This document shows, one piece after another, positions 1,071-57,477 of a stretch of DNA of 64,000 bases. Each line of letters starts with the position of its first letter. Positions within the stretch are counted from its first letter, which is position 1. This DNA comes from a bacterium. Lineage in GTDB: Bacteria > Patescibacteriota > Patescibacteriia > Patescibacteriales > GWC2-42-12. A program made the position numbers and the translations under genes. The stretch is from NCBI GenBank assembly GCA_030650415.1, contig JAUSEG010000005.1, positions 23,333 through 87,332 on the forward strand. Reading direction: 5' to 3'. A model generated the notes under the pieces. The model was not told where the DNA came from and searched no databases. It was given only the letters and a program-made list of their open reading frames with translations.

Positions 1071-2321
1071 ATGAAAAAAATCCTCTTTTTTATCACTCAA
1101 TCCGAATTCGGCGGCGCCCAGCGCTATGTCTTTGATTTGGCTAATAATTTAAAAGGTGATTTTGAAGTGGCCGTGGCTTTAGGCGAGCAAGCAAATAATG
1201 GAAAATTAGCTAAAATTTTAAGTGAAAATAATATAAAATATTATATAATCCCCCACCTAAAGCGGAGTATTTCGCCCATCAATGACATTTTGGCTTTTTT
1301 TGAAATCATAAAACTAATCAAAAGTTACCGACCAGACATCGTCCATCTAAACAGTTCTAAAATTTCCATCCTGGGATCAATCGCGGCTTTCGTAATTAAG
1401 TTACGAGTTGCGAGCTACGAGTTACGCGTCATTTACACGGTTCACGGCTGGGTCTTTAACGAGCCGCTGCCGATATGCCAAAAATGGTTTTATAAATTCG
1501 CGGAAAAATTTACCGCCAGATTTAAAGATAAAATTATCTGCGTCTCCGAATTTGACAAACAAATTGCTCTAAAATTTAAAATCGCGCCGGAAAATAAATT
1601 GATTACTATTCATAATGGCCTCGCGCCAATTAACTTCTGTCCTGAAAAAGAAGCCAAAAAGATAATTTATTCCAAAATTCAACCTGTCATTCTGGAGCCG
1701 AAGGCGATAGAATCCCGTGTTTTATCGGCTACCCAGCAAGATTCTATCGGTCGCTCCGCTCCCTCCAGAATGACAAATGACATCATTATCGGTTCAATCG
1801 GCAATCTCTACAAAACCAAGGGCTATGAATATTTTATCCAAGCGGCCGACATCTTAATTAACCAGCATCATCTATCGGCGGCTTTTATTATCATCGGCGA
1901 GGGCGAAGAAAGAAAAACTCTGGAAAATTTAATCGCCAAATTAAATTTAAAAAATAATTTTATTTTAACCGGTCGGCTTGACGATGCCGCCAAACTTTTA
2001 CCGGCCCTTAATCTTTACGTTTGCTCTTCGGTAAAAGAAGGCCTCCCTTATTCGGTCTTAGAAGCTATGAGCGCCGGTTTGCCGATTGCCACGACTGATG
2101 TCGGCGGCATTCCGGAAATGATTGAGGACAAAAAAACCGGCCTATTAGTCGGACCGGCTGATCCGAATGATTTAGCGGAGAATATTAAAACTCTTCTAAA
2201 TAATAAAACCCTGGCCACAGAACTTGGTCGGCGCGCTCAAGAAATAGCCTCAGCAGAATTCGGCCTAGAAAAAATGATCGAGGCAACGAAAAACGTTTTT
2301 ACTTCTTTTCTAAATTCCTAA
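1071..2321 (+). CDS. Glycosyltransferase family 4 (GT-B) with repeat-derived insertion
   Basis: C-terminal EGLPYSVLEAMSAGLPIATTDVGGIPEMIED motif is typical of GT4. An N-terminal GGAQRY-type loop is present. The ORF reads through the palindromic element at 1685-1775. Confidence 0.8.
   Translation: MKKILFFITQSEFGGAQRYVFDLANNLKGDFEVAVALGEQANNGKLAKILSENNIKYYIIPHLKRSISPINDILAFFEIIKLIKSYRPDIVHLNSSKISILGSIAAFVIKLRVASYELRVIYTVHGWVFNEPLPICQKWFYKFAEKFTARFKDKIICVSEFDKQIALKFKIAPENKLITIHNGLAPINFCPEKEAKKIIYSKIQPVILEPKAIESRVLSATQQDSIGRSAPSRMTNDIIIGSIGNLYKTKGYEYFIQAADILINQHHLSAAFIIIGEGEERKTLENLIAKLNLKNNFILTGRLDDAAKLLPALNLYVCSSVKEGLPYSVLEAMSAGLPIATTDVGGIPEMIEDKKTGLLVGPADPNDLAENIKTLLNNKTLATELGRRAQEIASAEFGLEKMIEATKNVFTSFLNS
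1685..1775. repeat. Type-1 mosaic palindromic element (TGTCATTCTGGAG...CTCCAGAATGACA) inside the GT4 ORF
   Basis: Perfect 13-nt inverted termini. Same terminal family as the intergenic copies, e.g. 13709-13792 and 39757-39826. Confidence 0.8.
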
Positions 2322-4524
2322 TAAACTCCTCAACCGCTGACTTCAGGGACGGATCTAAGGCACCGGCCTTTTTGGCCATTTCTATGGCTTTGTCTTTATT
2401 GCCCGTTTGCTCGTAAAGCAACGACAGATTAACCCAGGGTTGAACATTATTCGGTTCCATAATCGACCATCTTTCGCATAGAATCAGCATGCGAGCTAGA
2501 TCTTTCTTCTCGTTGTAATAACCCAAAGCAATCTTTATTAAATCAACCGGGTTTAAATAAGTGCTACCGTTTAAATCAAGACACTTATCCATAGCCGCGT
2601 AACCGGTAGTTTCATCCTTTAAATAAATCGCCACTCTAGCTAAATAACAAGCGGCCTCGGCGTACTTTTCATTCAAGCCGGCGGCATATTTTAAAGTTTC
2701 AATCGCCTTATCCTTATCATTTCTCGCGATTAATATTTGCGCTTTGCTGAAATAAATCGTTACCCGGCCCGGACTGGCTTTAATGGATTCATTAATCGCT
2801 TGCAACGCGCGATCGGAATAAAAAGAAAACTTGCTCGGATCATCGGTGTTAACCGAAGCGGCCGTGTTTAAAGCCTGCGCCAATTGCATCTGCATCATGC
2901 TGTCTAAAGGATTTAATCTGACGTTGGCTTCGGCTAAACTTACGGTATAATCGGCGATTTGCTTGGCCTCTTGCTTATCAATTGACGATAAATTATATTG
3001 CCTGGCGTTAACGGCGTTGACTAAGCTGGCGCGGCTATCCCGATCTAGTCCGGTCTCATAACTTAAGGTCTTTTTATATTCTTCCACTCCAGCCGCGATA
3101 TCGCCTTGAGAGAATTTTATTTGACCTTTAATCGTGCCGTCCAGCATCATCAAGGGTTTAATATTATACTGATAAACGATAGTTAAAGAAATCAAACCGA
3201 CGATAGCTAAAACCGCCAAATCTTTATTGGTCAAACCGCCGCCAGAAGTAAGTTCTTCTGCTTCACTGCCGTTAACCAGCCAATAAATATAACCGAGGGT
3301 CAGCATTAACGAAATATAAGTTACCAATGAATCAAAAACCGCCAAATTCTGAATAAAATAAGCGACCAGCAAACAGATTAACAAAATAAATTCATTAACG
3401 GAAATTTTATTTTGCTTTTTGCCTTTAACTAAATAATAGCCCGCAGCCGATAAGATAAGAAAATAAGTTATCAGTCCTAAGAGGCCGGCGGTTGAAGCTA
3501 AATCCACCAAATTATTATGCGCCCGGTCAAAATAAGTTTCAGTCGGGGTGTAGCTATAAAATTTAGGATCAAAATATTTATCGAACGAAATTGCGAAATT
3601 GCCGTAGCCGCTGCCAAGAGTAGGGTGGCTAGGAAAGTCTTGAGCCGCGGCTTTCCAAGAGATTAACCTGGTTTGAAAAGTAACCGCTTTAGCTGAAATT
3701 TGCGTTACCGTGCCTAAAACTGAACTGTTTTTAACTAGATTGCTCTCTGGGAATAAAAGCACCAATCCCACTACCGCCACTACCGCCACCGAACTCAAAA
3801 AGCTATAAATTTTTATTTTTTTATTCTGGCTATACAAAACATGCAGAATAAAAAATAAAAGAAAACTTACGGCCAGCCCGACATAAGCGCCCCTGGTATG
3901 GGTAACCCTCATGACTAATAGCATTATAAAAGCGGCGGCTAAGTAAAGCGCGCTTATAAACCAGTCTGCGCCTTTGCCATTTTCTTCGCCGCGACTCCTA
4001 AAAAATAAAATTAAGGCAAAATAAATATTAAAAATAACATAGCCGGAAACATAAGCCGTATTACCGATAGTGCTATAAGGAATTTTAAATAAACTTATGA
4101 GGGAAACTATAAAAGCGGCGATAATCGAAACTATAAATAAATTACGCCAGTCCTGCCATCGTCTAAAGACCGTGATAATAATCAAATAATATAAAAAGAA
4201 GTGAAATACATGAAACCAACCCAGCATTCTTTCGATGTCGCCCCAAAAACTTAAATTAAAATCAACGCCAAAAATCGAGGAGGCTAAGAGAGCGGCGAAA
4301 AAAGCCAGGAGGCCATAAGTAATCCAAGATTTTTTCGGCCTGACTTCCGGATATTTTATAACTAAAGCCAGCCAGCCAATCATTAAAACTTCCACTAAAA
4401 TATTAAAAGCTATTTGCTTGGAAGTTATGTAGGGAAACAACAAATTTTTAAACACTAAAAAAACCGAGATAAAAGATAAATAGACTCCGGTTTTTAAAAT
4501 AATTAAATATGTTTTTAGAGGCAT
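2299..4524 (-). CDS. O-antigen ligase/polymerase-like membrane protein fused to C-terminal TPR repeats
   Basis: About 12 hydrophobic segments, a Wzy_C-like HTRGAYVGLAVSF loop, and a C-terminal third made of TPR-like A/Y/L-rich 34-mers. Confidence 0.65.
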   Translation of the reverse strand: MPLKTYLIILKTGVYLSFISVFLVFKNLLFPYITSKQIAFNILVEVLMIGWLALVIKYPEVRPKKSWITYGLLAFFAALLASSIFGVDFNLSFWGDIERMLGWFHVFHFFLYYLIIITVFRRWQDWRNLFIVSIIAAFIVSLISLFKIPYSTIGNTAYVSGYVIFNIYFALILFFRSRGEENGKGADWFISALYLAAAFIMLLVMRVTHTRGAYVGLAVSFLLFFILHVLYSQNKKIKIYSFLSSVAVVAVVGLVLLFPESNLVKNSSVLGTVTQISAKAVTFQTRLISWKAAAQDFPSHPTLGSGYGNFAISFDKYFDPKFYSYTPTETYFDRAHNNLVDLASTAGLLGLITYFLILSAAGYYLVKGKKQNKISVNEFILLICLLVAYFIQNLAVFDSLVTYISLMLTLGYIYWLVNGSEAEELTSGGGLTNKDLAVLAIVGLISLTIVYQYNIKPLMMLDGTIKGQIKFSQGDIAAGVEEYKKTLSYETGLDRDSRASLVNAVNARQYNLSSIDKQEAKQIADYTVSLAEANVRLNPLDSMMQMQLAQALNTAASVNTDDPSKFSFYSDRALQAINESIKASPGRVTIYFSKAQILIARNDKDKAIETLKYAAGLNEKYAEAACYLARVAIYLKDETTGYAAMDKCLDLNGSTYLNPVDLIKIALGYYNEKKDLARMLILCERWSIMEPNNVQPWVNLSLLYEQTGNKDKAIEMAKKAGALDPSLKSAVEEFIRNLEKK

Positions 4525-4550
4525 AGATAAATTAAATTAAAACTAACATT

Positions 4551-4685
4551 TGTCATTGCGAGGAGCCTGTAATCAGGCGACGAAGCAATCTCTGGTCAGT
4601 TTATTTAAACAACTTTATTACTGCTCAATTTTTTAGCACTTTCTAACCAGAGATTGCTTCGTCGCTACTGCTCCTCGCAATGACA
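4551..4685. repeat. Type-1 mosaic palindromic element
   Basis: TGTCATTGCGAGGAGC...GCTCCTCGCAATGACA outer arms. Inner arms are GCGACGAAGCAATCTCTGGT / ACCAGAGATTGCTTCGTCGC. Confidence 0.85.
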
Positions 4686-4713: not shown

Positions 4714-5697
4714 TTAATTAATCTTTTCCCACGATATCTTTACCTTGGCGTTTCTGGTGGACTCGTAATATTCAACCTTCACTTCATGGCTACCCGCGGT
4801 TATATTTCTTTCTCGGTTAAATATCATTTCTCTATCATTGTCAGCCCAGGATTGCAAAAAATTTTCATTATCAAGATAGACTCTAATAGCGTCATCAAAA
4901 ACCGTTCTAAACTCATAATTACCGTCTAGAAAATTACAACTGGCAGTATAGCGAATTGAAAATCTATCAAAAAAAGAAAGTTGTTCCGGTCCGCCGGTTC
5001 CCCAATCAAAGTTTATCGCCTTAACACTGCTAGTGGCGATAGGCGATCCAAAAAGATTCTTATTATCAAAATATTCGGCCAACCAGACGCAAGTTGTTGT
5101 AGCGATATTCTCGGTTGTATCGACTATAATTATCGGACTAGTCGTGGCCGTTTCTCCTGTTGCGCTGTCGGGCGTGCTGGTCGCCACCGGCGTGTCAGTT
5201 TCCGGCGTCACGACTTCAACGGGCGCTTGAACCTCTGAATTATCTACGGTAATCACCGGACTGGATTTCGCGTCCACGGTAATCAACGCTAAGTTGCTAT
5301 CGGTTATGCCGAGCCCCAGGTTTCTCATCACGCTAAAGGCGTCGACTGGACGACCCAAGTAATGCATAGTTAAATTAAGCGGATTAACATAATAAGCTTC
5401 ACCTAAATCCTCAACTTTAAGTAAAATCTTGCCCGCCAATCTAACCGGAGCCAAACCTTTAAATAAATTAAAATCTTTATTAGACACGCCTAAACCCTGC
5501 TCTCTCATAATCTTAAAAGCGTCGGCCGGCCGGCCAAGATAAAATCTCTTTTGACTGTCCGGATTAACATACCAGGCCTCGCCATTAGCTTCAACTTGCA
5601 ATAAAATTCTGCCTGCTAATTTTTGGGCTAAGCTTTCCGCCTGCGCTAAATTTAATGGCAAGAGTAAAAATAATAACAAAATTAATAATTTTTTCAT
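4714..5697 (-). CDS. Secreted protein: two tandem ~50-aa N-terminal repeats, Thr/Pro linker, C-terminal PA14-like domain
   Basis: Signal peptide MKKLLILLLFLLLPLNLAQA (start moved to the ATG at 5697). Internal duplication LAGRILLQVEANGEAWYVNP... / LAGKILLKVEDLGEAYYVNP.... The C-terminus (YFDN...FDWG...FSIRYT...YEF...DDAIRVYLD) resembles PA14. Confidence 0.6.
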   Translation of the reverse strand: MKKLLILLLFLLLPLNLAQAESLAQKLAGRILLQVEANGEAWYVNPDSQKRFYLGRPADAFKIMREQGLGVSNKDFNLFKGLAPVRLAGKILLKVEDLGEAYYVNPLNLTMHYLGRPVDAFSVMRNLGLGITDSNLALITVDAKSSPVITVDNSEVQAPVEVVTPETDTPVATSTPDSATGETATTSPIIIVDTTENIATTTCVWLAEYFDNKNLFGSPIATSSVKAINFDWGTGGPEQLSFFDRFSIRYTASCNFLDGNYEFRTVFDDAIRVYLDNENFLQSWADNDREMIFNRERNITAGSHEVKVEYYESTRNAKVKISWEKIN

Positions 5698-9500: not shown

Positions 9501-10228
9501 ACGGTTAAGCCAGAGCCCGCGCCGATTGATCCGCCCGCGCCTGACGAAGTATCAGTTAGGGTGGCAACCGCGCCCGAGATGCTAGCGCCAACAACCGGTT
9601 TAGCGATCGTGGCGGTGATAACATCAGCCCATTTAAATCTGTTGGCTAAGAAAGCCGCTTCGGTAGCGATCTTTGAAGCTGTGGTATCAGCATTGATAAG
9701 ATAAACATCAGCTTCAGTGCCAAACTTCACTAAACTGCCCTGAGGATAAGAGGTCGCGCTGACTACGCTGGTAAGGGTAATGTAGTTGGTAAAGAAAGCG
9801 TCAGACACATCAATAATCCTCTTATTCCATTGTGATCCGAATAAAGTCGCGGCCGTCGCTTCATCAGGAACGCCCACTAAAGAGCCTCCGGCGACAACGG
9901 CGTAAACTTTCGGATTAGTAGTAATTTTAACTAATTTAGTACCCGGTCTAACGGTGACATTCTTACCCAGAGGATATGACTCTAACTCGCTTTGAGAAAT
10001 AGTCACAACGCTGGAGAAATCACTGTACCAGGAAAAATAAGTTGACTCATTAGGGAAAACATATCTCTTTCCGTCAGCGGCCAAGTAATAAACGGACGAA
10101 AGTCCGCTCATCTTGATTAAGTCACCGGCTGAAGCGTTGGCACTCACATTAGGAGCTACCACTACGCTCATTGATAAGACGGTAACGAAAATTACGCCTG
10201 CGGCAAAGATTTTCTTGAATCTTTCCAT
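6551..10228 (-). CDS. Very large secreted surface (S-layer-like/adhesin-like) protein
   Basis: Start moved to MERFKKIFAAGVIFVTVLSMSVVVAPNVSANA (signal peptide). About 1225 aa, rich in A/T/S/V/G and free of Cys. At least 5 divergent ~110-130-aa modules recur with the pattern ...V.LYD.....V......F.F.....I.AG.T....V.ADI. Confidence 0.7.
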   Translation of the reverse strand: MERFKKIFAAGVIFVTVLSMSVVVAPNVSANASAGDLIKMSGLSSVYYLAADGKRYVFPNESTYFSWYSDFSSVVTISQSELESYPLGKNVTVRPGTKLVKITTNPKVYAVVAGGSLVGVPDEATAATLFGSQWNKRIIDVSDAFFTNYITLTSVVSATSYPQGSLVKFGTEADVYLINADTTASKIATEAAFLANRFKWADVITATIAKPVVGASISGAVATLTDTSSGAGGSIGAGSGLTVSLASDTAAASTIPAGSPTSFLKINLTASNDGAVSVSAIKLKTFELGTATYVDSVTFYDNGVKVGTAKNINSDKEATFNFSTPIVVAAGTTKSLVVKATIVAGQTSGNFALGIAAASDITTNGAAVSGSFPVRGNVQAVTSSTIGTVTMSNLGTSDTSNDFGEDNVLLAKFDLTAANEAVIFSGFAMKNGGTNTAGIVGNMRVVIDGDEVVKGGELVDKIVTFSFNKVIAKNDTITVEVYGDIGIGNTTNTIDLYFYEAGDLYFTGQDYGYGIEIGSSYFANIDGVSEGIVVTLTAGDVTIDMDKTVTPSKDVRPGDNAVILATVKVLSAGENATITALGAGADSFYITGTNPSCTKLDNAVLRDTVTGASYDLTIASSTTASYCKLTNSDEISLVKGVTKTYQIKVDVAGTNDTNPAVDSDTLQVVLKSTGFTISGDDSDASLQSSITPTSVSSAIATVKTASLTWQTTALTAKTIVPSAKDVVVYAASLEAGASSAVTLTSVKIHSTSTVASAFSDTNISQLRLYVDNKLVKTVAGGIVEPASGTAGYINFTSLDTTNRVIPAGKTVTLEVKADFSSTFSPTGVIGLTADGVAASIVAQDKDSNAVAESVKNAATLSRTLTLASAGTLKVELTVTDLKSNTNTILLAGSKITSGDKYLGKLTFTTANEPIKVKTLVLGQQGTARADDIASVELYDKNEVLVASKGVSTLGDANFSDLNLVLSADNVHEYFIGVTARGINVEGDPSATADDAETIIYTLASSTQLTQLGLSADDAVTAVGVDLGDDITLVEDTDASVAAGEYAEWGVATSTTATIHGSVLTSITNPMSNTTLSNGNDQIIGKYKFIFNNGSNRNSDNTELKARLVTLGLSIATSSGVFVNNIQVYIDGDSSNKTTAVQEDGSTGTASSTFSQLSGTTEDVDGEVTIVIEGDISGVDASGDFVQTKIADLTYRFVYNGNNGTGTDVSNVLLNVSEVIGAKLSY

Positions 10229-10290: not shown

Positions 10291-10728
10291 TCCGGTTAAA
10301 TAATAAAATTATTTAACCTGGATGCTTGACTCGTTTTTTAAATTAAGATCTTGGCAAATCAACCGGAATCCCGCTCCCCCGCGAAAAAAATACGATTTTT
10401 CTGGCTTCGCCAGATCTGGCATAGCCAGACAATTTACGATTTTCGAATTTAGAATTTTAATTCGTAATTCGAAATTCATAATTCGTAATTCCTTCTGGGG
10501 GTTAGCTTGCTGATTTACCTCGTGGCTCGCGACGATCAATCGCGGAGCCGTATCCCGGGACTAGCCCGGGACTAGAAATTTAAAAAACAAGTTGATTAAT
10601 TAGATTGGCAAAGTCTCCATCGAAATGGATCGACCATTTATAACTTTACCGTAACCCGCTTAATGCGGATTAGAGAATTTCTCTCAATTAAGAGATAAAC
10701 TATCTAATCAACACTAATTGTTTAGTAT

Positions 10729-10874
10729 TGTCATTGCGGGCTTGACCCGCAATCCAGATTTAATTTTCAAAAACACATACTAAGAGACAAAACGTTTATA
10801 CTTTTAACTCCTGGATTCCGGCTTCGTCTGCCGGTAGGCAGACTCTCCGCCAGCTGGCGGAGGCCGGAATGACA
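10729..10874. repeat. Type-1 mosaic palindromic element
   Basis: TGTCATTGCGGG...GGCCGGAATGACA. Contains the modules ATCCAG/CTGGAT, CTGCCGGTAGGCAG and CCGCCAGCTGGCGG. Confidence 0.85.
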
Positions 10875-10876
10875 GT

Positions 10877-11860
10877 TTACTGTGTACTGCTCGCCGTCTC
10901 GCTCGCGCCTTCAACCTGACCGACTTCAGTCTGATTAATAACTTTGTTTATTTCTCCAAGCTTATCTATGGCACCGTTAAGATTTTTTTCATCCACTAGC
11001 TTTTCCGCTTCGTCAAGCATCTGACCGGCCTGCTGTGAGCCTGCCGAACCAGCCGAATTAGCGTTTTCCGCCGTAGAAGTGGCGGTGGCCTGCTGTGAGC
11101 CTGCCGAATCAGCCGCAATTTGGTTTTCTAAAATTGGCTTAGAGGTGCTAGCCACCGGCTCAACTATTGGCGTTGGTTTAATTTGCCCGTCTGCCTGTCC
11201 GGCCTGCCTGCCGGTAGGCAAGGTAGACCCGCCGACTGGCGTGGCCGATTCGGATATTTCCAGCCTTTGATTATTCTTACCTAAATTAGCGCCAAAAACT
11301 TCTGATTCGGCTTCTTTTGACTTGGCCTGATCGGCGGCAGCCTTAATGACGGACAATCGATTTTTTACTTGGCTGATTTCTTTTTTAAAATTCTGCGATA
11401 GTTTTTCCAGCTTGTCATTATTAACTGTAGCGGTTTGACCCTTATCTTCTAAAACCTGAATCATTTCCTTAGCGCGATTAGTGGCAAACTCAACGCCTAG
11501 TTTGGCCTTATCTTTTTCATCAAAGGTCATAGCGAACTGCGCCCGCTCGCTGATAATTTTCGCGATATATAATGAATCGCCGGGTTTAGTATTTTTTGAG
11601 GCGTAAACGCCGCCGATGCCAACCACTAAAATTAAAACACTGGCTATAGAGGCTAGCCAAACCGGTTTAGCGAAGCTCATTAAAATTTGGCGCGGCATAA
11701 TACTCTCCCAAACTATTCTAATATCCGACTTCGGTTCGAGCTCCGGCTGACCGGCGGAAATTTGGCTAAACAAAATATCCCGATATTCTTTCTGCCAATC
11801 ATTATCGGGTTTAATGCTTTTTAAATTATTTAATTTTTTGAGAAGTTCTTGATCAGTCAT
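10877..11860 (-). CDS. Putative anti-sigma/membrane-anchored partner of the ECF sigma factor (DUF5667-like)
   Basis: Lies directly downstream of the sigma gene. Has a single TM segment (VWLASIASVLILVVGIGGVYA) followed by a helical PGDSLYIAKIISERAQF... region. The C-terminal low-complexity part includes repeat-derived LPTGRQAGQ and a 31-bp internal duplication. Confidence 0.45.
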   Translation of the reverse strand: MTDQELLKKLNNLKSIKPDNDWQKEYRDILFSQISAGQPELEPKSDIRIVWESIMPRQILMSFAKPVWLASIASVLILVVGIGGVYASKNTKPGDSLYIAKIISERAQFAMTFDEKDKAKLGVEFATNRAKEMIQVLEDKGQTATVNNDKLEKLSQNFKKEISQVKNRLSVIKAAADQAKSKEAESEVFGANLGKNNQRLEISESATPVGGSTLPTGRQAGQADGQIKPTPIVEPVASTSKPILENQIAADSAGSQQATATSTAENANSAGSAGSQQAGQMLDEAEKLVDEKNLNGAIDKLGEINKVINQTEVGQVEGASETASSTQ

Positions 11861-11867: not shown

Positions 11868-12091
11868 TGTCATTGCGAGCCGCCCCTGTAATCTGGGCGG
11901 CGCGGTCATCGCTACGCGAGATCTGGCGTAGCCATGACAATCTCTGGTTCAATAGCACAAAACTTAACTATTTTTTTAATGCTCAACACCAATCTAAATT
12001 TATTTTAAAGTAGCATTTCTTAATTTCTTGTTCTTGCCAACTTACCAGAGATTGCTTCGTCTCCGCCAGCTGGCGGATCCTCGCAATGACA
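11868..12091. repeat. Type-1 mosaic palindromic element (long form)
   Basis: TGTCATTGCGAGCCGCCCCTGTAATC...CTCGCAATGACA. Contains GCTACGCGAGATCTGGCGTAGC, AATCTCTGGT/ACCAGAGATT and CCGCCAGCTGGCGG. Confidence 0.85.
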
Positions 12092-12678: not shown

Positions 12679-12716
12679 TTAATTATACGTAAAAATTAGA
12701 GTATTGTTACAGTTTA

Positions 12717-12916
12717 CCCCGTGAAATAGCTTCGCACCCCGTTAAAACGGGGATTTCATGGGGTGAACCCCGTGAAATTGCTTCGCACCCCGTTAAAACG
12801 GGGATTTCATGGGGTGAACCCCGTGAAATTACTTCGCACCCCGTTAAAACGGGGATTTCATGGGGTGAACCCCGTGAAATTACTTCGCACCCCGTTAAAA
12901 CGGGGATTTCACGGGG
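12717..12916. repeat. Tandem array of four 51-bp type-2 hairpin units
   Basis: Units start at 12717, 12768, 12819 and 12870. Each unit is CCCCGTGAAATnnCTTCGCACCCCGTTAAAACGGGGATTTCA(T/C)GGGG(TGAA). There are no spacers. The array lies about 38 nt upstream of the sigma-factor ATG. Confidence 0.9.
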
Positions 12917-13062: not shown

Positions 13063-13186
13063 TGTCATTCTGGCCTACGAGCCGGAATCCAGAGTTCAAT
13101 AGCAAAGACGTTAATCATTCAACGTTCTTTAATAATTCACATTCCTACGGCTCACTCCTGGATTGCGGGTCAAGCCCGCAATGACA
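13063..13186. repeat. Type-1 mosaic palindromic element
   Basis: TGTCATTCTGGCC...CCCGCAATGACA with GGAATCCAG / CTGGATTGC inner arms. Confidence 0.8.
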
Positions 13187-13708: not shown

Positions 13709-13792
13709 TGTCATTCTGGAGGGAGCGTCAGCGACCGATAGAATCTCATGGGATCCTATTGCTTCTCCGCCAGCTGGCGGATCGCAATGACA
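13709..13792. repeat. Type-1 mosaic palindromic element
   Basis: TGTCATTCTGGAGGG...CCGCCAGCTGGCGGATCGCAATGACA, 3 nt after the HTH gene's stop. Confidence 0.8.
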
Positions 13793-17340: not shown

Positions 17341-17350
17341 ATGCGCAACT

Positions 17351-17456
17351 GGCCGTCGGAGGAATGTTGGTTTTGAGCGCATACGAAATTGTAGTATTTT
17401 TTAAAGAAAATGCCCAAATTTCGTCTAAGCGAAAAACCAACATTCCTCCGACGGCC
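17351..17456. repeat. Long hairpin element with conserved core (family also at 24681-24828)
   Basis: Perfect 24-bp arms GGCCGTCGGAGGAATGTTGGTTTT / AAAACCAACATTCCTCCGACGGCC. The inner core, GAGCGCATACGAAATTGT...AATGCCCAAATTTCGTCTAAGCG, is shared with the second copy. Confidence 0.8.
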
Positions 17457-17495
17457 AAACTACCCTAATCAATATTTTTAAGCGCGTAAACACTT

Positions 17496-23673: not shown

Positions 23674-23693
23674 AATTTTAAATTTAGAAAGTC

Positions 23694-23914
23694 TGTCATT
23701 GCGAGGAGCGAACACAGATCCCTCTCCGCCAACTGGCGGATCGGGACAAGCTTCGCAACCTCTTTGCGTTGTCATTGCGAGGAGCTTCGGCGACGAAGCA
23801 ATCTCACGAATGTCTATGCTCCATTAAATCTCGCCATTATTATATTATTATTTTTCTTCGCCGTTCGTGAGATTGCCGCGCTCTCCGCCAGCTGGCGGAT
23901 CGCTCGCAATGACA
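23694..23914. repeat. Two abutting type-1 mosaic palindromic elements
   Basis: Copies start at 23694 and 23770 (TGTCATTGCGAGGAGC twice). They contain CCGCCA(A/G)CTGGCGG twice and AGCAATCTCACG / CGTGAGATTGC, and end in CGCTCGCAATGACA. Confidence 0.85.
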
Positions 23915-35304: not shown

Positions 35305-35447
35305 TGTCATTGCGAGGAATGGAGCGAAGCGTAATGACGAAGCAATCTCACGCATATCTATTTATTACCAGCTGTGCAAATTACATTAATTTTCTTGCTT
35401 AGATGTTCGTGAGATTGCTTCGCTCCTTTCAGTCGCTCGCAATGACA
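35305..35447. repeat. Type-1 mosaic palindromic element
   Basis: TGTCATTGCGAGG...GACGAAGCAATCTCACG...CGTGAGATTGCTTCG...CGCTCGCAATGACA, between rplO and secY. Confidence 0.85.
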
Positions 35448-36716: not shown

Positions 36717-36756
36717 TCCGCCAACTGGCGGACATTCGCTTAAATTAATTTAAAAT

Positions 36757-39756: not shown

Positions 39757-39826
39757 TGTCATCCTGGAGCGAAGCGATAGGATCTAGATTCTATCGATCG
39801 GCCTCTGGCCTCCCTCCAGAATGACA
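39757..39826. repeat. Type-1 mosaic palindromic element (short form)
   Basis: TGTCATCCTGGAGCG...CCCTCCAGAATGACA, between rplN and rplX. Confidence 0.8.
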
Positions 39827-43786: not shown

Positions 43787-43800
43787 AGATTCAATTAGCA

Positions 43801-43858
43801 ATTACGAATTACGAATTAATTATTTCAGATTTTTAATTCGTAATTTTTAATTTTTAAT
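43801..43858. repeat. AT-rich hairpin built from AATTACG/CGTAATT words
   Basis: ATTACGAATTACGAATTAA vs TTAATTCGTAAT, in the rplW-rplB spacer. Related words occur at 10440-10490. Confidence 0.55.
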
Positions 43859-43862
43859 TGGT

Positions 43863-44396
43863 TTACACGCCTTCGTAAATTTTAATAGCTTGATCTTTTG
43901 GTAAAGTTACTATGGCCTTTTTCCAGTCTTTTCTTTTGCCGCTGATTTTTCCGTAACGAGCGTTCTTGCCCATCATTTTAATAACATTCACACTAGTTGG
44001 CTTAATGCCATAAACCTCTTTAATGGCTTTAGCGATTTCTATTTTATTGGCATCGCCGGCCACGGCAAAAACATATTTATTTAAAGCGCCTAGATTGCTG
44101 ACTTTTTCCGTAACTAACGGTTTAACCAAGACTTTATAGGCATTGCCATAAGTCGTTCGCGCCTGACCCTTCTTAACCTCCTTGCCCTTACCTGCTCCGA
44201 GCCTGGTCGAGGAGGCGGTCGAAGCAGTACCATATAAATCCTTCATGCTCTTAGTTTCCGGCTCTGCCTTAACAGGAGTTTTTCCAGCGCTAACCGGCGT
44301 CGGCTTGGCCACGGCTTTTTTCTGATCACCTGCCCCGAGCTTAATCGAGGGGTCAGTTTTTTTTCCAAATATTGACATACAATAATTAATTTTCAA
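43863..44396 (-). CDS. rplW: 50S ribosomal protein L23 with ~80-aa N-terminal extension
   Basis: C-terminal YKVLVKPLVTEKVSNL...KIEIAKAIKEVYGIKP. Start uncertain (the ATG at 44378 is also possible). Confidence 0.85.
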   Translation of the reverse strand: MKINYCMSIFGKKTDPSIKLGAGDQKKAVAKPTPVSAGKTPVKAEPETKSMKDLYGTASTASSTRLGAGKGKEVKKGQARTTYGNAYKVLVKPLVTEKVSNLGALNKYVFAVAGDANKIEIAKAIKEVYGIKPTSVNVIKMMGKNARYGKISGKRKDWKKAIVTLPKDQAIKIYEGV

Positions 44397-44525
44397 TTTT
44401 CAATTTACAAATTTTCAATCAATTACCAATGAATTAATGAATTAATTTTCAAATAAAAATATAATTAATTGAAAATTCAATCATTGAAAATTCATTGAAA
44501 ATTGATAATTGTAAATTAAAAATTA
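44384..44525. repeat. AT-rich long hairpin built from TTTCAAT/ATTGAAA words
   Basis: AATTTTCAATTTTCAATTTACAA... vs ...TTGAAAATTGATAATTGTAAATTAAAAATT, in the rplD-rplW spacer. Confidence 0.55.
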
Positions 44526-45275
44526 TTATTTATACCTTTCTTCTAGCTTCTCAACAACGGTTCTTGCAATAATTAAATTCTTATATTTCAACAGGTCTAC
44601 TATATTTATATTATTCATGTTAATCAGCAAAACGCCAGGTAAGTTTTTTGCCGAATTGGTTAATTTCTCATCAGTCTTTTCGACGATAATCAAGATACTG
44701 CGTTTTTTCGCTGATTTACCGGTTTTAGTTTTCTTTGGCTTGGCTTCAACTTGTCCGGTTAAATTCATGGCCTGCTTAACTTCAGCTGAACCGGAATTCA
44801 ATGGAGTAAAAATTTTATTTTCTAAATTAGCTAAAATCTGATTAAAAAATTTGGTTTTAAATTCCGTTATGGAAAATTTATCTAAAACGACTAAATGATC
44901 GCTGGCCAGTTTATCGGATAAAACCATAAGCATGGCGCCCTGCTTCATCTTTTTATTTATCCGCATTTTAAAATTCCGGTCGTTTCTCGGACCGAAGGTT
45001 ACGCCGCCACCCTTCCAAATCGGTGATCGGCTTGAACCGTGGCGCGCTCGGCCCGTGCCTTTTTGCGCCCAAGGTTTTTTACCGCCGCCCCTGACTTCGC
45101 TTCTGGTCTTAGTATGAGCGATAACTTTTCTCTCGTTGGCCATTTGCGTAACAACCGCCTGGTGCACTAGAGCTTCATTAACTTTCACGCCAAAAACCTT
45201 TGAAGAAAGTTCCATCTCTCCGGCAGCTTCCGCGTCTTGGTTGTAGATTTTTATTTTAAGGCTCATATTTTGCAT
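44526..45275 (-). CDS. rplD: 50S ribosomal protein L4
   Basis: GGGKKPWAQKGTGRARHGSSRSPIWKGGGVTFGP. The first track ATG (45281) lies in the repeat terminus, so the start is set to the next ATG. The exact start is uncertain. Confidence 0.88.
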   Translation of the reverse strand: MQNMSLKIKIYNQDAEAAGEMELSSKVFGVKVNEALVHQAVVTQMANERKVIAHTKTRSEVRGGGKKPWAQKGTGRARHGSSRSPIWKGGGVTFGPRNDRNFKMRINKKMKQGAMLMVLSDKLASDHLVVLDKFSITEFKTKFFNQILANLENKIFTPLNSGSAEVKQAMNLTGQVEAKPKKTKTGKSAKKRSILIIVEKTDEKLTNSAKNLPGVLLINMNNINIVDLLKYKNLIIARTVVEKLEERYK

Positions 45276-45392
45276 TGTCATTCCCGCGAAAGCGGGAATC
45301 CAGGAGGAAGCAGTATAAACATTGTTAATAATTTACCGTGTTTGTGCCTCTGCCTCCTGGATTCCCGACAGCCTGCGGCTTCGGGAATGACA
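45276..45392. repeat. Type-1 mosaic palindromic element (downstream flank of the inserted ORF)
   Basis: TGTCATTCCCGCGAAAGCGGGAATCCAGGAGGAAGCAGTATAAAC...TTTGTGCCTCTGCCTCCTGGATTCCCG...CGGGAATGACA. Confidence 0.85.
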
Positions 45393-45435
45393 AGATAAAA
45401 AATTGTTCGTTTTAATATTACTAATCACTAATCTT

Positions 45436-45471
45436 TAAAAAATGGGGGTATTAGTAAATTGCGCTACCCCC
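45436..45471 (-). terminator. Candidate intrinsic terminator after the inserted 104-aa ORF
   Basis: Minus strand reads GGGGGTA-14 nt-TACCCCC followed by ATTTTTT, 9 nt after the stop. Confidence 0.5.
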
Positions 45472-45479
45472 GATCGGCC

Positions 45480-45794
45480 TTAGCCGATGGTCACGCAAGG
45501 AACGCCGCTACTTTCTGACTTAACCTTACCCTCCTTCTTCGACAATCTCTTGATGAAATTGGCAACCGCCTTGGCTATGCGTATTTGTTCCGCCTTGGCG
45601 CGGTATTCATCAGACTTACGCGCCCTTATTCTCGGATCACCGTAGGTCACCATCTCTGAATCTTCTTCATAGGCCACGGCCGCGGCTTCCAATTCTCTCA
45701 ACTCTTGCTTCAGCCTCCTGCAACGACCGGATAACCTAATGGCCGTTTGCTGCAACCACGCCTTGTCAATAACTACCATCGTTTGTGTTTTCAT
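45480..45794 (-). CDS. Hypothetical 104-aa protein inserted between rplC and rplD
   Basis: An ATG at 45794 is preceded by ACGGAGATCAAAC (GGAG Shine-Dalgarno). Visibly more G+C-rich than its neighbours. Predicted helical and charged (RELEAAAVAYEED..RAKAEQIRIAKAVANFIKRL). No motif recognised. Confidence 0.55.
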   Translation of the reverse strand: MKTQTMVVIDKAWLQQTAIRLSGRCRRLKQELRELEAAAVAYEEDSEMVTYGDPRIRARKSDEYRAKAEQIRIAKAVANFIKRLSKKEGKVKSESSGVPCVTIG

Positions 45795-45838
45795 GTTTGA
45801 TCTCCGTGTTTTTGTTTCTGTTGTTTTATTGTTTGATT

Positions 45839-46026
45839 TGTCATTCCCGCGAAAGCACTCTGTTTTCTTTCTCTGCGCCGAGGTCGGCACCGAGGAGCAA
45901 TCCAGGAGGAAGCAGTACAAACGATCCTTATCGTTTACTATATTTGTGCCTCTGCCTCCTGGATTCTCATGGCTACGCCAGATCTCGCGTAGCGATGACC
46001 GACAGGCTTCGCCTTCGGGAATGACA
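45839..46026. repeat. Type-1 mosaic palindromic element (upstream flank of the inserted ORF)
   Basis: Same orientation and same inner core (ATCCAGGAGGAAGCAGTACAAAC...TTTGTGCCTCTGCCTCCTGGATT) as 45276-45392, plus a GCTACGCCAGATCTCGCGTAGC module. Confidence 0.85.
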
Positions 46027-46875: not shown

Positions 46876-46955
46876 TGTCATTCCCGCGCAGGCGGGAATC
46901 CAAAAACGGATTTTTTACTTCTCACTCCTGGATTCCCGCCTTCGCGGGAATGACA
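46876..46955. repeat. Type-1 mosaic palindromic element
   Basis: TGTCATTCCCGCGCAGGCGGGAATCCA...CTGGATTCCCGCCTTCGCGGGAATGACA, in the 356-nt rpsJ-rplC spacer. Confidence 0.85.
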
Positions 46956-47946: not shown

Positions 47947-48038
47947 AAATTTATTTAACCGCAAATCTGCAAATTCACTACGAATAAAACAAACAGTATT
48001 CGTAATATTCGTAGCTGATTTGTAGATTTGTGGAATGT

Positions 48039-50477: not shown

Positions 50478-50664
50478 TGTCATTGCGAGGAATCCTATTT
50501 CATTTTGTCATCCCCGCGCAGGCGGGGATCCAGGTTAAAAACGAAAAAATTTCGGTTTACTGAAATAATGGCAAAACAAAATGTCCGTGTCGCTGAACTC
50601 TGGATTCCGGCTCGCCTTCGGCTTAAAGGCCGGAATGACAAAAAGACGGTCGCTCGCAATGACA
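50478..50664. repeat. Nested type-1 elements (one copy inside another)
   Basis: Outer TGTCATTGCGAGG...GTCGCTCGCAATGACA. Inner TGTCATCCCCGCGCAGGCGGGGATCCAGG...CTGGATTCCGGC...GGCCGGAATGACA. Confidence 0.85.
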
Positions 50665-50699: not shown

Positions 50700-52787
50700 T
50701 TACTTCTTCCCCTCGTTTTTTTCCCCAATAATCTCTTCGGCGACATTTCTCGGTACTTCGGAATAATAAGCGAATTCCATGCTATAGCTGGCTCGGCCCT
50801 GGGTCATTGATCTTAGCTGAGTGGCGTAACCGAACATTTCTGATAGCGGAACTTTAGCTTTTATAAATTTAACCATGGCCCGGTCGCCCATTTCTTCAAT
50901 CTGCGCCCGCTTAGAATTCAAATCTCCGATAACCTCGCCCATAAAATCCTCCGGGGTTACGGCTTCAACTTTCATAATCGGCTCGAGAATTATCGGCGCG
51001 GCATGACGGCAAGCTTCCTGGAAAGCTATGGAACCGGCAATTTTAAAGGCCGCTTCGGACGAATCGACATCATGATAAGATCCGTCTAAAACCGCCACTT
51101 TAATATCGACAATCGGATAACCGGCTAAAACGCCTCTGTCCAGAGCTTCTTTAACGCCCTTTTCCACAGCCGGAATAAATTCGCGGGGGATTGATCCGCC
51201 CTTAACTTCATCAAGGAATTCAAAACCCTTGCCCTGCTCATTCGGTTCAACTCTAAGCCAGCAATGGCCGTATTGTCCATGGCCGCCCGATTGCTTAATA
51301 TATTTTCCTTCGGCTTCGGCGGATTTTTTAATGGTTTCGCGATAAGCGACTTGCGGTTTACCGACGTTAGCTTCAACTTTAAATTCCCGTTTCATGCGGT
51401 CAACGATAATGTCCAAATGAAGCTCGCCCATGCCCTTAATAATCGTCTGCATGGTTTCTTCATCACTGACCACTCTAAAAGTTGGATCTTCTTCTGATAA
51501 TTTTGATAAGGCCATGCCCATTCTTTCTTGATCGCCCTTGGTTTTCGGTTCAATGGCGATAGAAATAACCGGCTCAGGGAAAGTAATTGATTCTAGAACT
51601 AACGGCCGGCTTTCATCGCATAAAGTATTACCCGTAGTAGTGGCTTTTAAGCCGATTACGGCCGCAATTTCACCGGCATAAACTTCCTGAACTTCTTCTC
51701 TGTGATTCGCATGTAATCTAACAATGCGGCCGATTCTTTCCCGGTTGCCGGTAGAAGTATTTAAAAGATAAGAGCCGGATTTTAAAACTCCGCTATAGAC
51801 TCTGATAAAACAAAGCTTGCCGACGTAGGGATCGGTCGCAATCTTAAAAGCCAGAGCCGCGAACGGCTCGGTATCGGACGGCTTAACCACAATGAGCCTT
51901 TCTTTATCGTCCGGATCAAAACCGGTAATGGCCGGCACTTCGAGGGGCGAAGGCAAGTATTCAATAACCGCGTCTAAGAGCAGCTGCACGCCTTTATTTT
52001 TTAAAGCGCTGCCGCAAAGCACCGGCACAATTTTATTATTTACCACCGCTTGACGCAGGACTCTTTTTAAATCGGCGACGGCGATTTCTTCGCCGGCCAA
52101 ATATTTATTCATTAAAACTTCGTCATTTTCGGCAATCGCCTCAACTAGCTTAGAGCGATACTCTTCAACTTTAGCTTTCATGTCCGCCGGCACTTCCCTA
52201 TCCTCCCACTTAGTACCCAGCTCGTCTAAAAAAAAGCGCGCTTTTCTTTCAAATAAATCTATCATGCCTTGGAACTTATCTTCGGCGCCGATCGGCAGCT
52301 GAACCGGGTGGGCATGCTTAGTCAATCTTTTATGGATTGAGGCTAAATCTTTATAAAAATCCGCGCCGGTGCGATCCATTTTATTAATGAAAGCAATGCG
52401 CGGCACTTTATATTTATCAGCCTGATGCCAAACGGTTTCCGATTGCGGCTCGACTCCGGCCACGCCGTCGAATAACACTACGCCGCCGTCTAAAACACGC
52501 AAAGATCTTTCCACTTCAGCGGTAAAATCCACGTGCCCGGGGGTATCGATTAAATTGATGCGGCAATCTTTCCAAAAACAAGTGGTAGCCGCGCTCGTTA
52601 TAGTTATACCGCGTTCCTGCTCCTGCTCCATCCAATCCATTTCCGCCGTGCCTTCATGCACTTCGCCGATCTTATGCTTTTTTCCGGTATAAAAAAGAAT
52701 CCGCTCGCTGACCGTGGTTTTACCCGCGTCAATATGAGCGATAATGCCGATGTTGCGTGTTTTTTCTAAACTATATTCTCTAGGCAT
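50700..52787 (-). CDS. fusA: Elongation factor G
   Basis: [17 protein letters not shown] and NKMDR motifs. 695 aa. Confidence 0.97.
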
Positions 52788-52798
52788 AATTTAATATT

Positions 52799-52862
52799 TG
52801 TCATTCCCGCGCAGGCGGGAATCCATTTCCTCTGTCATTGCGGCCTCCGAGCCGCAATCCAG
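52799..52862. repeat. Two left-hand type-1 termini in tandem
   Basis: TGTCATTCCCGCGCAGGCGGGAATCCA followed by TGTCATTGCGGCCTCCGAGCCGCAATCCAG. Confidence 0.75.
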
Positions 52863-52908: not shown

Positions 52909-53958
52909 TCAATTTGTAAATTTGAATGTTGCTAAGATTTGCTTTTGTAAATCATTATCTTCATCAATATAATATAAATCAGCTGGGCATGAACCAAAAC
53001 TAATTACAAGGGTTTTATCGCTAACTGCAGTCTTAACTATTGTCGCCAAGCAACCAGCATCGCCCATCTTATACTTATAGCCAGCATTATTACCGACTTT
53101 TATTGTTTCAAATTTTTCAATTTTTCCATACATATCTTCAATATTATTTGGATCTAATTTTTTATCTGTTAAAGTTAAAGATAATGTGCCACGTTTACTA
53201 TTAAAATAAACATAATTTTCTTCTTTTCCAGCAATACTAAAAACTGTACCGGGGTATTTAAATGAAACCCCGCTCAATTTACTATACTGCAACCATTGGC
53301 TATCTACGACTTTTGGTTTTACCCAATCTTCGTTGATTTTAAAAGTTTTCAGTATCTCCTGTGATATTTTATCATCCTTGAGAAAATTAATTAAAAATAC
53401 TGTTCCTAGTTTATTGGCAGTAAAAATAAAAGTTCTTTCTTTTTCTATTTGCCATCCCCCAGTCTGCCATTGGAAACTTCCTATTATATTAAAAGTAAAA
53501 GCATCTCTACCATCAACTTTTGTAGTAAGGAGGTTTGAAATAAATTTATTTTTAATATTTGGATTATTGTCATCTTTGTTAATCTGCCAAATTTCCTGTG
53601 CATATTCATCTATAGGTTGCTTTACTGCTTCCACGGTTAATACTTCAAAAGAGGAACGATTAACAGGAGTTTTATATTGATAGCCATATTTTTCATTATA
53701 ATAAATTTGCCAATCGTTTGTATCAACGACTTCGGGCTCTTCGGTCAGGTTTTTAGTAATAGCTTGATTATTTTTCTCAAAATTATCGTTAATTTTCTGC
53801 AAATTTTTTACTGCCTGATTTTCAATCTGCTTGCTTTGCTGAATTTGCCCTTGCCATTTTATTGTGCCAAAAGCAATCACGCCAATTACTAAAACAGCTA
53901 CTAGAATAGCTATTAATGCAAAACCTCTTTGTTTAAAAATTTCTTTGTTCGTTTTCAT
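52909..53958 (-). CDS. Hypothetical exported protein with pilin-like N-terminus
   Basis: KQRGFALIAILVAVLVIGVIAF resembles a prepilin leader (G/F cleavage site plus hydrophobic helix) but lacks Glu at +5. The remainder is N/K-rich with 2 Cys near the C-terminus. Confidence 0.45.
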   Translation of the reverse strand: MKTNKEIFKQRGFALIAILVAVLVIGVIAFGTIKWQGQIQQSKQIENQAVKNLQKINDNFEKNNQAITKNLTEEPEVVDTNDWQIYYNEKYGYQYKTPVNRSSFEVLTVEAVKQPIDEYAQEIWQINKDDNNPNIKNKFISNLLTTKVDGRDAFTFNIIGSFQWQTGGWQIEKERTFIFTANKLGTVFLINFLKDDKISQEILKTFKINEDWVKPKVVDSQWLQYSKLSGVSFKYPGTVFSIAGKEENYVYFNSKRGTLSLTLTDKKLDPNNIEDMYGKIEKFETIKVGNNAGYKYKMGDAGCLATIVKTAVSDKTLVISFGSCPADLYYIDEDNDLQKQILATFKFTN

Positions 53959-53972: not shown

Positions 53973-54000
53973 CTGGATTCCCGCCTGCGCGGGAATGACA
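53973..54000. repeat. Right-hand half of a type-1 element
   Basis: CTGGATTCCCGCCTGCGCGGGAATGACA. Confidence 0.75.
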
Positions 54001-55856: not shown

Positions 55857-55997
55857 TGTCATTGCGAGCGACTGTCTTTTTTTGTCATTCCGGCATCCGC
55901 CAGCTGGCGGAGAGCCTGCCTGCTGGCAGGCGAAGCCGGAATCCATGATTGTGTACTCTGGCCAAATTTCTGGATCCCCGCCTTCGCGGGGATGACA
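55857..55997. repeat. Nested type-1 elements
   Basis: TGTCATTGCGAGCG, then TGTCATTCCGGCATCCGCCAGCTGGCGG...CTGCCTGCTGGCAGG...GCCGGAATCCA...CTGGATCCCCGCCTTCGCGGGGATGACA. Confidence 0.85.
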
Positions 55998-57234: not shown

Positions 57235-57250
57235 AAATTAAAGTTTCATC

Positions 57251-57477
57251 TGTCATTGCGAGCCGCCCCTGTAATCAGGGCGAACGCGGGTCTCTCGCTA
57301 TCGCTCGGGATAAACTTCGCAATCTCTGGTTAGCAAGAAAAACGGGGGGAAAAAAATGCTTAATTAACAAAATAAATTTTGTTTTAAAAAAATTTACACT
57401 AGGCTGGTAAAGCGCTTTTAACCAGAGATTGCCACGCTCCCCAGCCCCAAGCTGGGGCTGGGTCGCTCGCAATGACA
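57251..57477. repeat. Type-1 mosaic palindromic element (long form)
   Basis: TGTCATTGCGAGCCGCCCCTGTAATC (same left end as 11868)...AATCTCTGGTT...AACCAGAGATT...CCCCAGCCCCAAGCTGGGGCTGGG...CGCTCGCAATGACA. Confidence 0.85.

Follow-up and report, generated by a model that had tools for sequence, protein, structure and literature searches.

A 64,000-nt stretch of a Patescibacteria genome (GenBank assembly GCA_030650415.1, contig JAUSEG010000005.1, positions 23,333–87,332; hereafter "the window") is dotted with short palindromic elements that begin with TGTCATT and end with AATGACA, which raises the question of what these repeats are and which enzyme could have spread them. As judged from their sequence, the repeats are members of an already characterized kind, the Ssn-related motifs (SRM), the class that includes the NTS and dRS3 repeats of Neisseria. 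We consider it likely that they are best explained as SRM-class hairpin repeats, mostly set as inverted pairs around a short variable core, with the nuclease Ssn acting in trans.

The mosaic palindromic family proposed in an earlier note on this DNA proved to be real. TGTCATT matched the window 50 times on both strands, against 5.48 ± 2.40 matches (maximum 15) in dinucleotide-preserving shuffles of the window, and TGTCAT or ATGACA stood at the start and/or the end of all 19 intervals that had been catalogued by hand, at the coordinates reported for them. A structural rule (TGTC, a perfect stem of at least 5 bp beginning at the AT of TGTCAT, and C, all within 95 nt) found 31 termini in the window, and all 31 fell in those intervals, indicating that the hand catalogue is essentially complete. 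As single strands, nine of the ten elements checked folded much better than shuffles (z −3.4 to −13.8); the exception, the hybrid element at 13709–13792, folded no better than shuffles (z −0.76). The self-complementary modules described earlier were confined, or nearly so, to the elements: copies of GCTACGCGAGATCTGGCGTAGC, both GCAATCTC… arms, CGATAGAATC, and CTGCC…GGCAG were found only there, and 12 of the 14 strand-hits of CCGCCAGCTGGCGG lay inside elements, one solo copy being located around 36718. Bare ATCCAG, which had been listed among the modules, was unspecific, with 18 of its 35 hits outside the elements. Rfam covariance models run over the window returned only two tRNAs at the gathering score and no match to the repeats, and a literature search gave no match for the DNA strings, the encoded peptides, or Patescibacteria palindromes.

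Every terminus shares one layout, 5'-TGTC followed by a hairpin, whose stem begins with ATT or ATC and finishes with AAT or GAT, and then C. Type A termini read TGTCAT-TCCCGC-loop-GCGGGA-ATCCAG, with the stem variants TGCGGG, TCCGGC, TCTGGC, and CCCCGC; type B termini read TGTCATTGCGAG…GCAATCTC and type C termini TGTCATTCTGGAG…GATAGAATC. The commonest terminus in the window is TGTCATTCCCGCGCAGGCGGGAATCCAG. A complete element consists of two inverted hairpins with a core of 0–110 nt between them and the TGTCAT ends pointing outward, an orientation seen in nearly all paired termini, so that on either strand the 5' end has one motif in the correct orientation. The cores are usually AT-rich and mostly without similarity between copies, the two ends of one element may differ in class or stem (13063, 13709, and 45276), and in many copies complementarity runs past the hairpins into the core (for example, 4577–4599 with 4643–4665). 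In the hairpins, small self-complementary modules often enlarge the loop; TCCGCCAGCTGGCGGA, one such module, is also found alone around 36718. Through such loop insertions a few termini grow beyond the 20–50 nt described for SRM hairpins. Solo hairpins occur at 23694, 29373, 52799, 52833, and 53973. The copies are as follows (unstranded unless a strand is given):

1685–1775, pair of type C (TGTCATTCTGGAG-type) termini, in frame in the GT4 glycosyltransferase open reading frame (ORF) 1071–2321
4551–4685, type B pair with TGTCATTGCGAG…GCAATCTCTGGT arms, between the Wzy-TPR and PA14 genes; fold z = −13.8
10729–10874, type A pair, right loop expanded by two mini-hairpins (CTGCCGGTAGGCAG and CCGCCAGCTGGCGG), ending 2 nt from the stop of gene 10877–11860
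11868–12091, type B pair, hairpin modules nested within, DUF5667–sigma-factor spacer
13063–13186, type A pair with unlike stems (TCTGGC-like and TGCGGG) in its two terminal hairpins
13709–13792, hybrid with a type C left end and a type B right end, CCGCCAGCTGGCGG hairpin inside; fold z = −0.76
23694–23769, plus strand, solo type B hairpin, loop expanded, directly adjoining element 23770–23914
23770–23914, complete type B pair, scpA–scpB spacer
29373–29409, minus strand, solo type A hairpin, in frame in recO
29806–29893, type A pair, ruvX–recO spacer
35305–35447, type B pair with GCAATCTCACG arms, between the L15 gene (rplO) and secY
36714–36735, solo mini-hairpin module TCCGCCAACTGGCGGA, outside any TGTCAT element
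39757–39826, type C pair with almost no core, between the ribosomal protein genes L14 and L24
45276–45392, type A pair abutting the L4 gene
45839–46026, type A pair with nested modules, core resembling that of 45276–45392
46876–46955, type A pair upstream of the L3 gene, each end carrying an exact dRS3 (ATTCCC-N8-GGGAAT); fold z = −10.6
50478–50664, type B shell with a complete type A pair (50506–50640) nested within, downstream of the elongation factor G (EF-G) gene
52799–52862, plus strand, two tandem solo type A hairpins in like orientation, between the EF-G gene and a 349-aa ORF
53973–54000, minus strand, solo type A hairpin, an exact match to the published NTS/SRM motif
55857–55997, half type B end (55857–55882), then a complete type A pair (55883–55997) whose left loop has two mini-hairpins
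57251–57477, type B pair, AT-rich core between long expanded terminal hairpins

Some details of the earlier description changed with this anatomy. Of the copies called nested or abutting, 50478–50664 is truly nested, whereas 55857–55997 is a half type B end followed by a complete pair, and the supposed two abutting copies at 23694–23914 are one solo hairpin and one complete pair. The elements are indeed ORF-less, but in a loose sense only, since stop-free frames of 52–67 codons cross several of them.

The identity of the termini became apparent from work on Neisseria. Half the copies of the dRS3 repeat (ATTCCC-N8-GGGAAT) sit in a longer oriented sequence, the Neisseria transformation sequence (NTS; CGTCATTCCCGCGMAVGCGGGAATCYRG), as reported by Chenal et al. 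(Nat Commun 2025, PMC11893778), who generalized NTS as SRM that flank the gene encoding SsnA, a GIY-YIG nuclease of 94 aa with a single domain. As shown for the Neisseria and Wolbachia homologues, Ssn binds the motif as single-stranded DNA only and in one orientation, and cuts a few nt 5' of it; SsnA does not bind it as RNA; the leading GTC is most important for cutting and the trailing C for binding, and alteration of the stem sequence abolishes activity even when the hairpin is kept (PMC11893778). In N. meningitidis, the Ssn system reduces transformation by motif-bearing DNA, and Rickettsia and Wolbachia are among the genomes richest in SRM (PMC11893778). The commonest terminus of the window, TGTCATTCCCGCGCAGGCGGGAATCCAG, differs from the published NTS consensus at the first base only. 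The published SRM motif (HGTCWYN(0-2)YYVSBRHN(0-5)WNVSBRGN(0-2)RNCYNB) matched the window 7 times, against 0.11 expected, all matches being short type A termini, and exact dRS3 matched 6 times, against 0.01 expected. In 31 of 31 termini the palindrome was led by GTC, itself always preceded by T, and was followed by C, features that the detection rule itself demanded. The comparison with intergenic mosaic repeats drawn in the earlier note was apt. The sequences, which it took to differ from those of BIME/REP, BOX, or Correia elements, do not stand apart from catalogued families; the note had named identification with a catalogued element as the outcome that would speak against it, and the identification as SRM/dRS3 is such an outcome.

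The same termini were found far beyond the window. In a scan of one genome per species with a type A terminus of 21 specified bases, at least 120 stretches from approximately 18 phyla were matched. Among the matches listed, 19 were Patescibacteria loci, and a Rickettsia endosymbiont and Candidatus Tisiphia were also present; the Rickettsia endosymbiont locus (L082) held three complete pairs within 8 kb, whose termini are identical to type A in the window. At five loci (L016, L056, L069, L105, and L109), two termini bracketed a 94–97-aa ORF in units of 352–362 nt, and the three of these ORFs that were scanned matched Pfam GIY-YIG (E 1e-13 to 1e-18). An Ssn-like ORF compared with a structure database gave only WD40 repeat proteins; no matched stretch passed alone, and these matches were treated as spurious.

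When metagenomes were scanned with six aligned Ssn-like proteins, 577 relatives were returned; 80 loci were kept, and 67 had enough flank. GTCAT-hairpin-C termini in inverted orientation were present on both sides of ssn at 36 of the 67 loci, on one side at 20, and on neither at 11, to be compared with the reported 42% and 71% (PMC11893778). Because identical termini flank a GIY-YIG gene in other genomes, the partner, as far as gene neighborhoods can tell, is the single-strand nuclease Ssn and not a Y1 or DDE transposase; the Y1 (IS200/IS605-type) enzyme that the earlier note had suggested is replaced at this position by an Ssn-type nuclease. Type B termini were also tied to ssn. The gene lay between type-B-like termini (TGTCATTGCGAGC…GGCAATCCAG) at L268 and L313, and between TGTCATTGCGAG…GGCAATCCAG termini at L268, L313, and L330, and, of the nearest named homologues of the type-B-flanked Ssn, two came from a single Candidatus Staskawiczbacteria genome (83% and 82% identity) and one from a "Patescibacteria group bacterium". 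On the 82-kb contig L330, the ssn unit begins directly after the atpD stop and before atpC, and ORF-less type B pairs occupy four other ATP-synthase spacers, with some termini nearly identical to those of the window, such as TGTCATTGCGAGGAGCAAAGCGACGAAGCAATCCAG. These loci indicate that type B has a cognate Ssn in Patescibacteria despite failing the published SRM motif.

Further occurrences were noted in the same scans. On a Patescibacteria contig (L331, 2070–2720), a hairpin-bracketed ssn is preceded by three tandem TGTCATC… half-sites and lies between TraC-like and PrgI-like genes, neighbors that suggest that this ssn is carried on a conjugative element. Type B termini were present in at least 120 stretches of IMG/VR viral contigs (L124–L243), and one type A terminus in a bin labelled Nanoarchaeota (L033); either the repeats reach phages and archaea or those contigs are misassigned. 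Four viral-contig pairs lying 630–642 nt apart were considered as ORF-bearing units and rejected, as ordinary genes lie there between separate small elements.

We then consider where the repeats sit. The glycosyltransferase and RecO of the host have identical counterparts in an NCBI metagenome-assembled genome (91-kb contig), and their nearest named relatives belong to Candidatus Falkowbacteria and to other Patescibacteria. A long run of minus-strand genes, including ribosomal-protein and elongation-factor clusters, takes up most of the window, and the elements fill its spacers: 17 of the 19 sites are intergenic, though intergenic sequence makes up only about 10.6% of the window and coding sequence about 89% (P = 4e-15), and the distance to the adjacent coding sequence is mostly 0–35 nt. 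The earlier placement at gene boundaries thus holds for most sites, the exceptions being 1685–1775 and 29373–29409, which are in frame within genes. As had also been noted, target-site duplications were not seen, with zero matching flank bases at 17 of the 19 sites and 1 and 2 nt, a chance level, at the other two, and no target sequence was found in the flanks beyond AT-richness and the lack of G at position −1.

The copy at 1685–1775 encodes ..VILEPKAIESRVLSATQQDSIGRSAPSRMT.. in the linker between the two Rossmann domains of the glycosyltransferase. Homologues P0010, P0029, P0005, P0009, and P0018 have no insert at this point, and other homologues carry different palindrome-encoded peptides with the same end point, …AMT|NN[LI]IGSIGN; inserts of this sort were also seen elsewhere in homologues. 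The DNA alignment shows a clean gap of 96 nt (32 codons) in the relative L002, and another relative, L001, carries a type A element at the site where the window has type C. In recO, the copy at 29373–29409 encodes VIPAPQNAGGIQ within an insert of about 19 aa that is absent from 11 aligned RecO homologues.

The false ATG starts attributed to the termini were confirmed. The ScpB ORF (23122–23775) reads into an element, its true start being MSFIKSK (compare MSSIKSK in the relative), and the start of the L4 ORF (45281) is the ATG of an AATGACA end; two codons further on, immediately beyond the element, comes another ATG in frame. The outward ATGACA end could also serve as a −35-like hexamer, with a −10-like box 17–18 nt further on (45253–45281 and 52775–52804).

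Orthologous spacers, whose comparison the earlier note had proposed, were examined at four syntenic loci, L001 and L248 (GCA_964560005.1) and L002 and L249 (JGI metagenomes). The density of termini was 4.8 per 10 kb in the window, against 1.4, 0, 0, and 0 in the four relatives, and seven orthologous sites lacked the element of the window in at least one relative: the glycosyltransferase linker and the Wzy–PA14, DUF5667–sigma, L14–L24, L15–SecY, RuvX–RecO, and ScpA–ScpB spacers. In L001, the Wzy–PA14 spacer is only 46 nt with a single small hairpin, and the DUF5667–sigma spacer is 34 nt with no such element. The ScpA–ScpB spacer measures 276 nt in the window and 3 nt in L248. The RuvX–RecO element is absent from the equivalent spacer in both L248 and L249, and the L15–secY element is absent from L249, L248 having only half a type A end there; the L14–L24 spacers of L248 and L249 hold other, unrelated inverted repeats. 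By this comparison, the gain of elements is lineage-specific, the spacers of the relatives being too diverged (about 70% protein identity) to fix exact empty sites and often holding unrelated inverted repeats. One of the relatives' contigs, the 289-kb CAZLKB010000002.1 (L001/L080/L248), bears the title "uncultured Gammaproteobacteria"; the genes that it contains and their synteny with the window (DUF5667, DUF5671, and gene order) are those of Patescibacteria, and the label is therefore probably wrong.

In the explanation that we favor, the pairs would have the SRM-ssn-SRM architecture with the GIY-YIG gene of about 95 codons replaced by a short core, and would thus be non-autonomous relatives of SRM-ssn-SRM, relying in trans on a nuclease of the Ssn family whose gene lies elsewhere in the genome or lineage. 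Such a nuclease would nick single-stranded DNA just outside each element end, the candidate substrates being imported strands, replication intermediates, and repair intermediates. Imported strands are plausible, because natural competence has been demonstrated in Saccharibacteria, another Patescibacteria lineage (PMC10633639). Nicking and recombination between copies would spread and reshuffle the repeats, and purifying selection would leave copies only where they are harmless, in spacers and surface linkers, which would account for elements that fill spacers up to the start and stop codons and for two in-frame copies in surface linkers. Very stable hairpins in operon transcripts, false start codons, and peptide inserts like those of the Rickettsia palindromic elements (RPE) would be by-products.

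Several points weigh against this explanation. Its weakest step is the insertion of DNA by a hydrolytic nuclease, since Ssn is hydrolytic and, to our knowledge, has no strand-transfer or insertion activity. Mobilization by Ssn is therefore a hypothesis, as it is also called by the authors who described the system (PMC11893778). At least five stem variants exist in the window, and, given the sequence specificity of SsnA, one nuclease may not serve all termini; 24 of the 31 termini (types B and C and long-loop type A) fail the published SRM motif, and most cores are unrelated, unlike copies of one transposing sequence. For type C, no ssn partner was demonstrated, and only a look-alike (TGTCATTCTGG…CCAGAATC) flanks ssn (L269, L272, L274, and L302). 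No ssn gene was found by tblastn or hidden Markov model searches in the 64-kb window or in 77 kb of the syntenic relatives, nor in 123 viral-contig loci with type B or C termini (1.06 Mb), which also held no ORF-bearing full-length type B unit.

Other explanations have to be set against it. The elements might be intercistronic hairpins acting on RNA as stabilizers, processing sites, or terminators, like enterobacterial REP, with an incidental link to the nuclease. Lying between co-oriented genes of ribosomal-protein and elongation-factor clusters, they should be transcribed, and their very stable folds and their ends at 0–35 nt from coding sequences would suit such a role. However, sequences of 25–28 nt, unpaired positions included, are conserved over some 18 phyla and flank a nuclease gene, for which a local RNA function would be insufficient; the elements are also absent from equivalent spacers in close relatives, two copies lie within coding regions, and SsnA fails to bind the motif as RNA (PMC11893778). 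The terminator role that had been suggested earlier was rejected, as the elements lack a T tract and none of them falls on an intrinsic-terminator-like site. Canonical intrinsic termination is thus unlikely, a secondary effect on mRNA may exist, and we give RNA-level function as the whole explanation a small chance of being right. In another reading, the pairs would not be units, and solo hairpins would arise or insert independently and gather at spacer ends as the sole positions tolerated. Such hairpins do exist, five in the window and one in the Wzy–PA14 spacer of L001, the cores are mostly unrelated, and within one element the two ends often belong to different subtypes. If hairpins inserted independently, all four arrangements would be expected, yet the TGTCAT ends almost always point outward; complementarity into the core, pairs with almost no core (39757–39826), and the same pair architecture in Rickettsia and many other phyla also argue for units, so that independent hairpins seem improbable.

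The remaining alternatives invoke a transposase. REP/BIME or IS200/IS605-derived elements moved by a Y1 enzyme (RAYT or TnpA) would be intergenic mosaics of palindromic units with terminal hairpins and no target-site duplication, as observed here, and the authors of the Ssn study drew this analogy themselves; they also noted that NTS-ssnA-NTS resembles an insertion sequence (PMC11893778). The gene found repeatedly between identical termini nevertheless encodes a GIY-YIG protein, and the termini match NTS/dRS3 rather than REP. The two ends of IS200/IS605 are not inverted repeats of each other, unlike the ends of the elements described here. No Y1 gene was noted among about 30 window proteins scanned, and we regard Y1 mobilization as very unlikely. 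[quoted passage not shown] The flanks described above, with their lack of target-site duplication at all but chance level, argue that the elements are not classical MITEs, as do the often different hairpins at the two ends of one element and the absence of any noted transposase among the same window proteins; this origin has the least credence of all the alternatives.

The repeats of the window resemble several known systems to differing degrees. They share with SRM/NTS-Ssn the hairpin layout, the GTC leader and trailing C, a mostly intergenic location, an almost identical type A sequence, and the inverted arrangement around ssn in other genomes. They differ in types B and C, which have other stems and much longer loops, in consisting mainly of ORF-less inverted pairs, and in their Patescibacteria host, a phylum not mentioned in the text of PMC11893778. 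Neisserial intergenic mosaic elements (NIMEs) are defined as a repeat core flanked by dRS3 inverted repeats (PMC9778887), and the pairs are like them in being mosaic, intergenic units that cluster around genes, mostly of 70–200 bp and with a variable core between inverted repeats. Taken strictly, with the 20-bp ATTCCC-N8-GGGAAT exact at both ends, the NIME definition fits only 46876–46955, other pairs having variant hairpins; 11868–12091 and 57251–57477 exceed 200 bp, and the host phylum is far removed. ATGAC is the reported signature of RPE-4, -6, and -7 as well as of the palindromic elements of Wolbachia, and different RPE groups have been reported at one site in orthologues. The window elements share this signature, and different elements occupy the same orthologous glycosyltransferase site in the window and in L001; like RPE, they are palindromic, 70–230 nt long, and in frame in unrelated proteins at exposed places. 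In the Rickettsia endosymbiont, the termini are identical to type A but the cores are unrelated. Only 2 of the 19 sites here are intragenic, unlike RPE, and the likeness described is one of signature and behavior. Hairpin recognition on single-stranded DNA, lack of target-site duplication, mosaic clusters, and the logic of a domesticated nuclease are shared with REP/BIME-RAYT and IS200/IS605-derived elements, while the enzyme here is a hydrolytic GIY-YIG nuclease and the sequences are unrelated. The Coxiella elements QMITE1 and QMITE2 were set aside, QMITE1 being approximately 400 bp long with short direct repeats and no orthologues elsewhere, and QMITE2 being REP-like.

It is conceivable, though we would sooner doubt than assert it, that the window pairs, the NIMEs of Neisseria, the ATGAC-type elements of Rickettsia and Wolbachia, and SRM-ssn-SRM form one pan-bacterial selfish superfamily, whose sole protein would be a GIY-YIG nuclease of about 95 aa. 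They would then represent a new class of mobile element without transposase or recombinase, in which ORF-less pairs are MITE-like derivatives, types B and C are specificity classes missed by current SRM searches, and operon spacers and protein linkers of reduced genomes are colonized.

What is new here is the host phylum and the copy density (a Falkowbacteria-like genome of the Candidate Phyla Radiation), the terminus classes B and C outside the published SRM motif, one of which (B) is tied to ssn in Patescibacteria, and the two in-frame insertions in the glycosyltransferase and RecO. Since the published motif misses most termini of the window, surveys based on it undercount the family. The repeats matter for the annotation of Candidate Phyla Radiation genomes, in which they bring false starts, spurious small ORFs, and odd peptide inserts (CHCEE…, …RGND, and …AFAGMT-like), and they appear to break assemblies, a 1,970-nt Logan contig for recO starting inside 29806–29893. 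They also join three literatures, those on dRS3/NIME in Neisseria, on RPE in Rickettsia, and on Ssn/SRM. Patescibacteria, with the nuclease gene and its ORF-less relatives in one operon and with competence known in the phylum, offer a natural test bed in which it could be seen if Ssn nucleases help their own repeats to spread or are confined to policing incoming DNA.

Two genes of the window are themselves bracketed by repeats. An extra 104-codon gene between the L3 and L4 genes (45393–45838; ORF approximately 45480–45794, minus strand), with its own Shine-Dalgarno sequence and a terminator-like hairpin and no Pfam match, is bracketed by two SRM pairs with similar cores (45276–45392 and 45839–46026). 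Solo hairpins likewise stand on both sides of the 349-aa ORF (52909–53958) that lies between the EF-G and S7 genes. The motif-gene-motif layout at both ORFs recalls the NTS-gene-NTS clusters of Neisseria.

Other repeats share the spacers of this region. A second palindromic family is represented in the window at 33804–33988 and in L249 at 975–1055, 4900–5075, and 9875–9990, where it fills the very spacers that hold SRM pairs in the window. Its inner part is conserved (TTTTCTACTGCGGAACTCG… …CTCAAACAGTCCTCGCACGAAAA), and its outer arms, about 25 nt long, vary from copy to copy and nevertheless remain complementary, opposite to what a normal MITE shows. Inverted-repeat units at 17350–17457, adjoining tRNA-Trp, and at 24681–24828 have a common inner TTTTGAGCGCATACRAAATTGT … AAAATGCCCAAATTTYGTCT and unrelated, fully complementary outer arms. 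Upstream of the sigma-factor gene, at 12716–12916, a self-complementary unit of 51 nt, ACCCCGTGAAATTACTTCGCACCCCGTTAAAACGGGGATTTCATGGGGTGA, is repeated 3.9 times in tandem (98% matches); the array creates a spurious 70-aa ORF and may be related to the peptide insert HPVKSGKAGAEQFNGV in the glycosyltransferase homologue P0004. Just upstream of ruvX, 30336–30447 holds a cluster of AATGACAAATTTCC-like repeats and inverted copies with AATGACA as in SRM ends and no hairpin termini. AT-rich heptamers (TAATTCG, ATGAATC, AATTTTC, AATTGAA, and others) form inverted arrays in many spacers (10458–10491, 31283–31374, 43792–43860, 44367–44531, and 47959–48033), and similar heptamer arrays (CGAAT-type, CAAATACTAC) are present in the relative L248.

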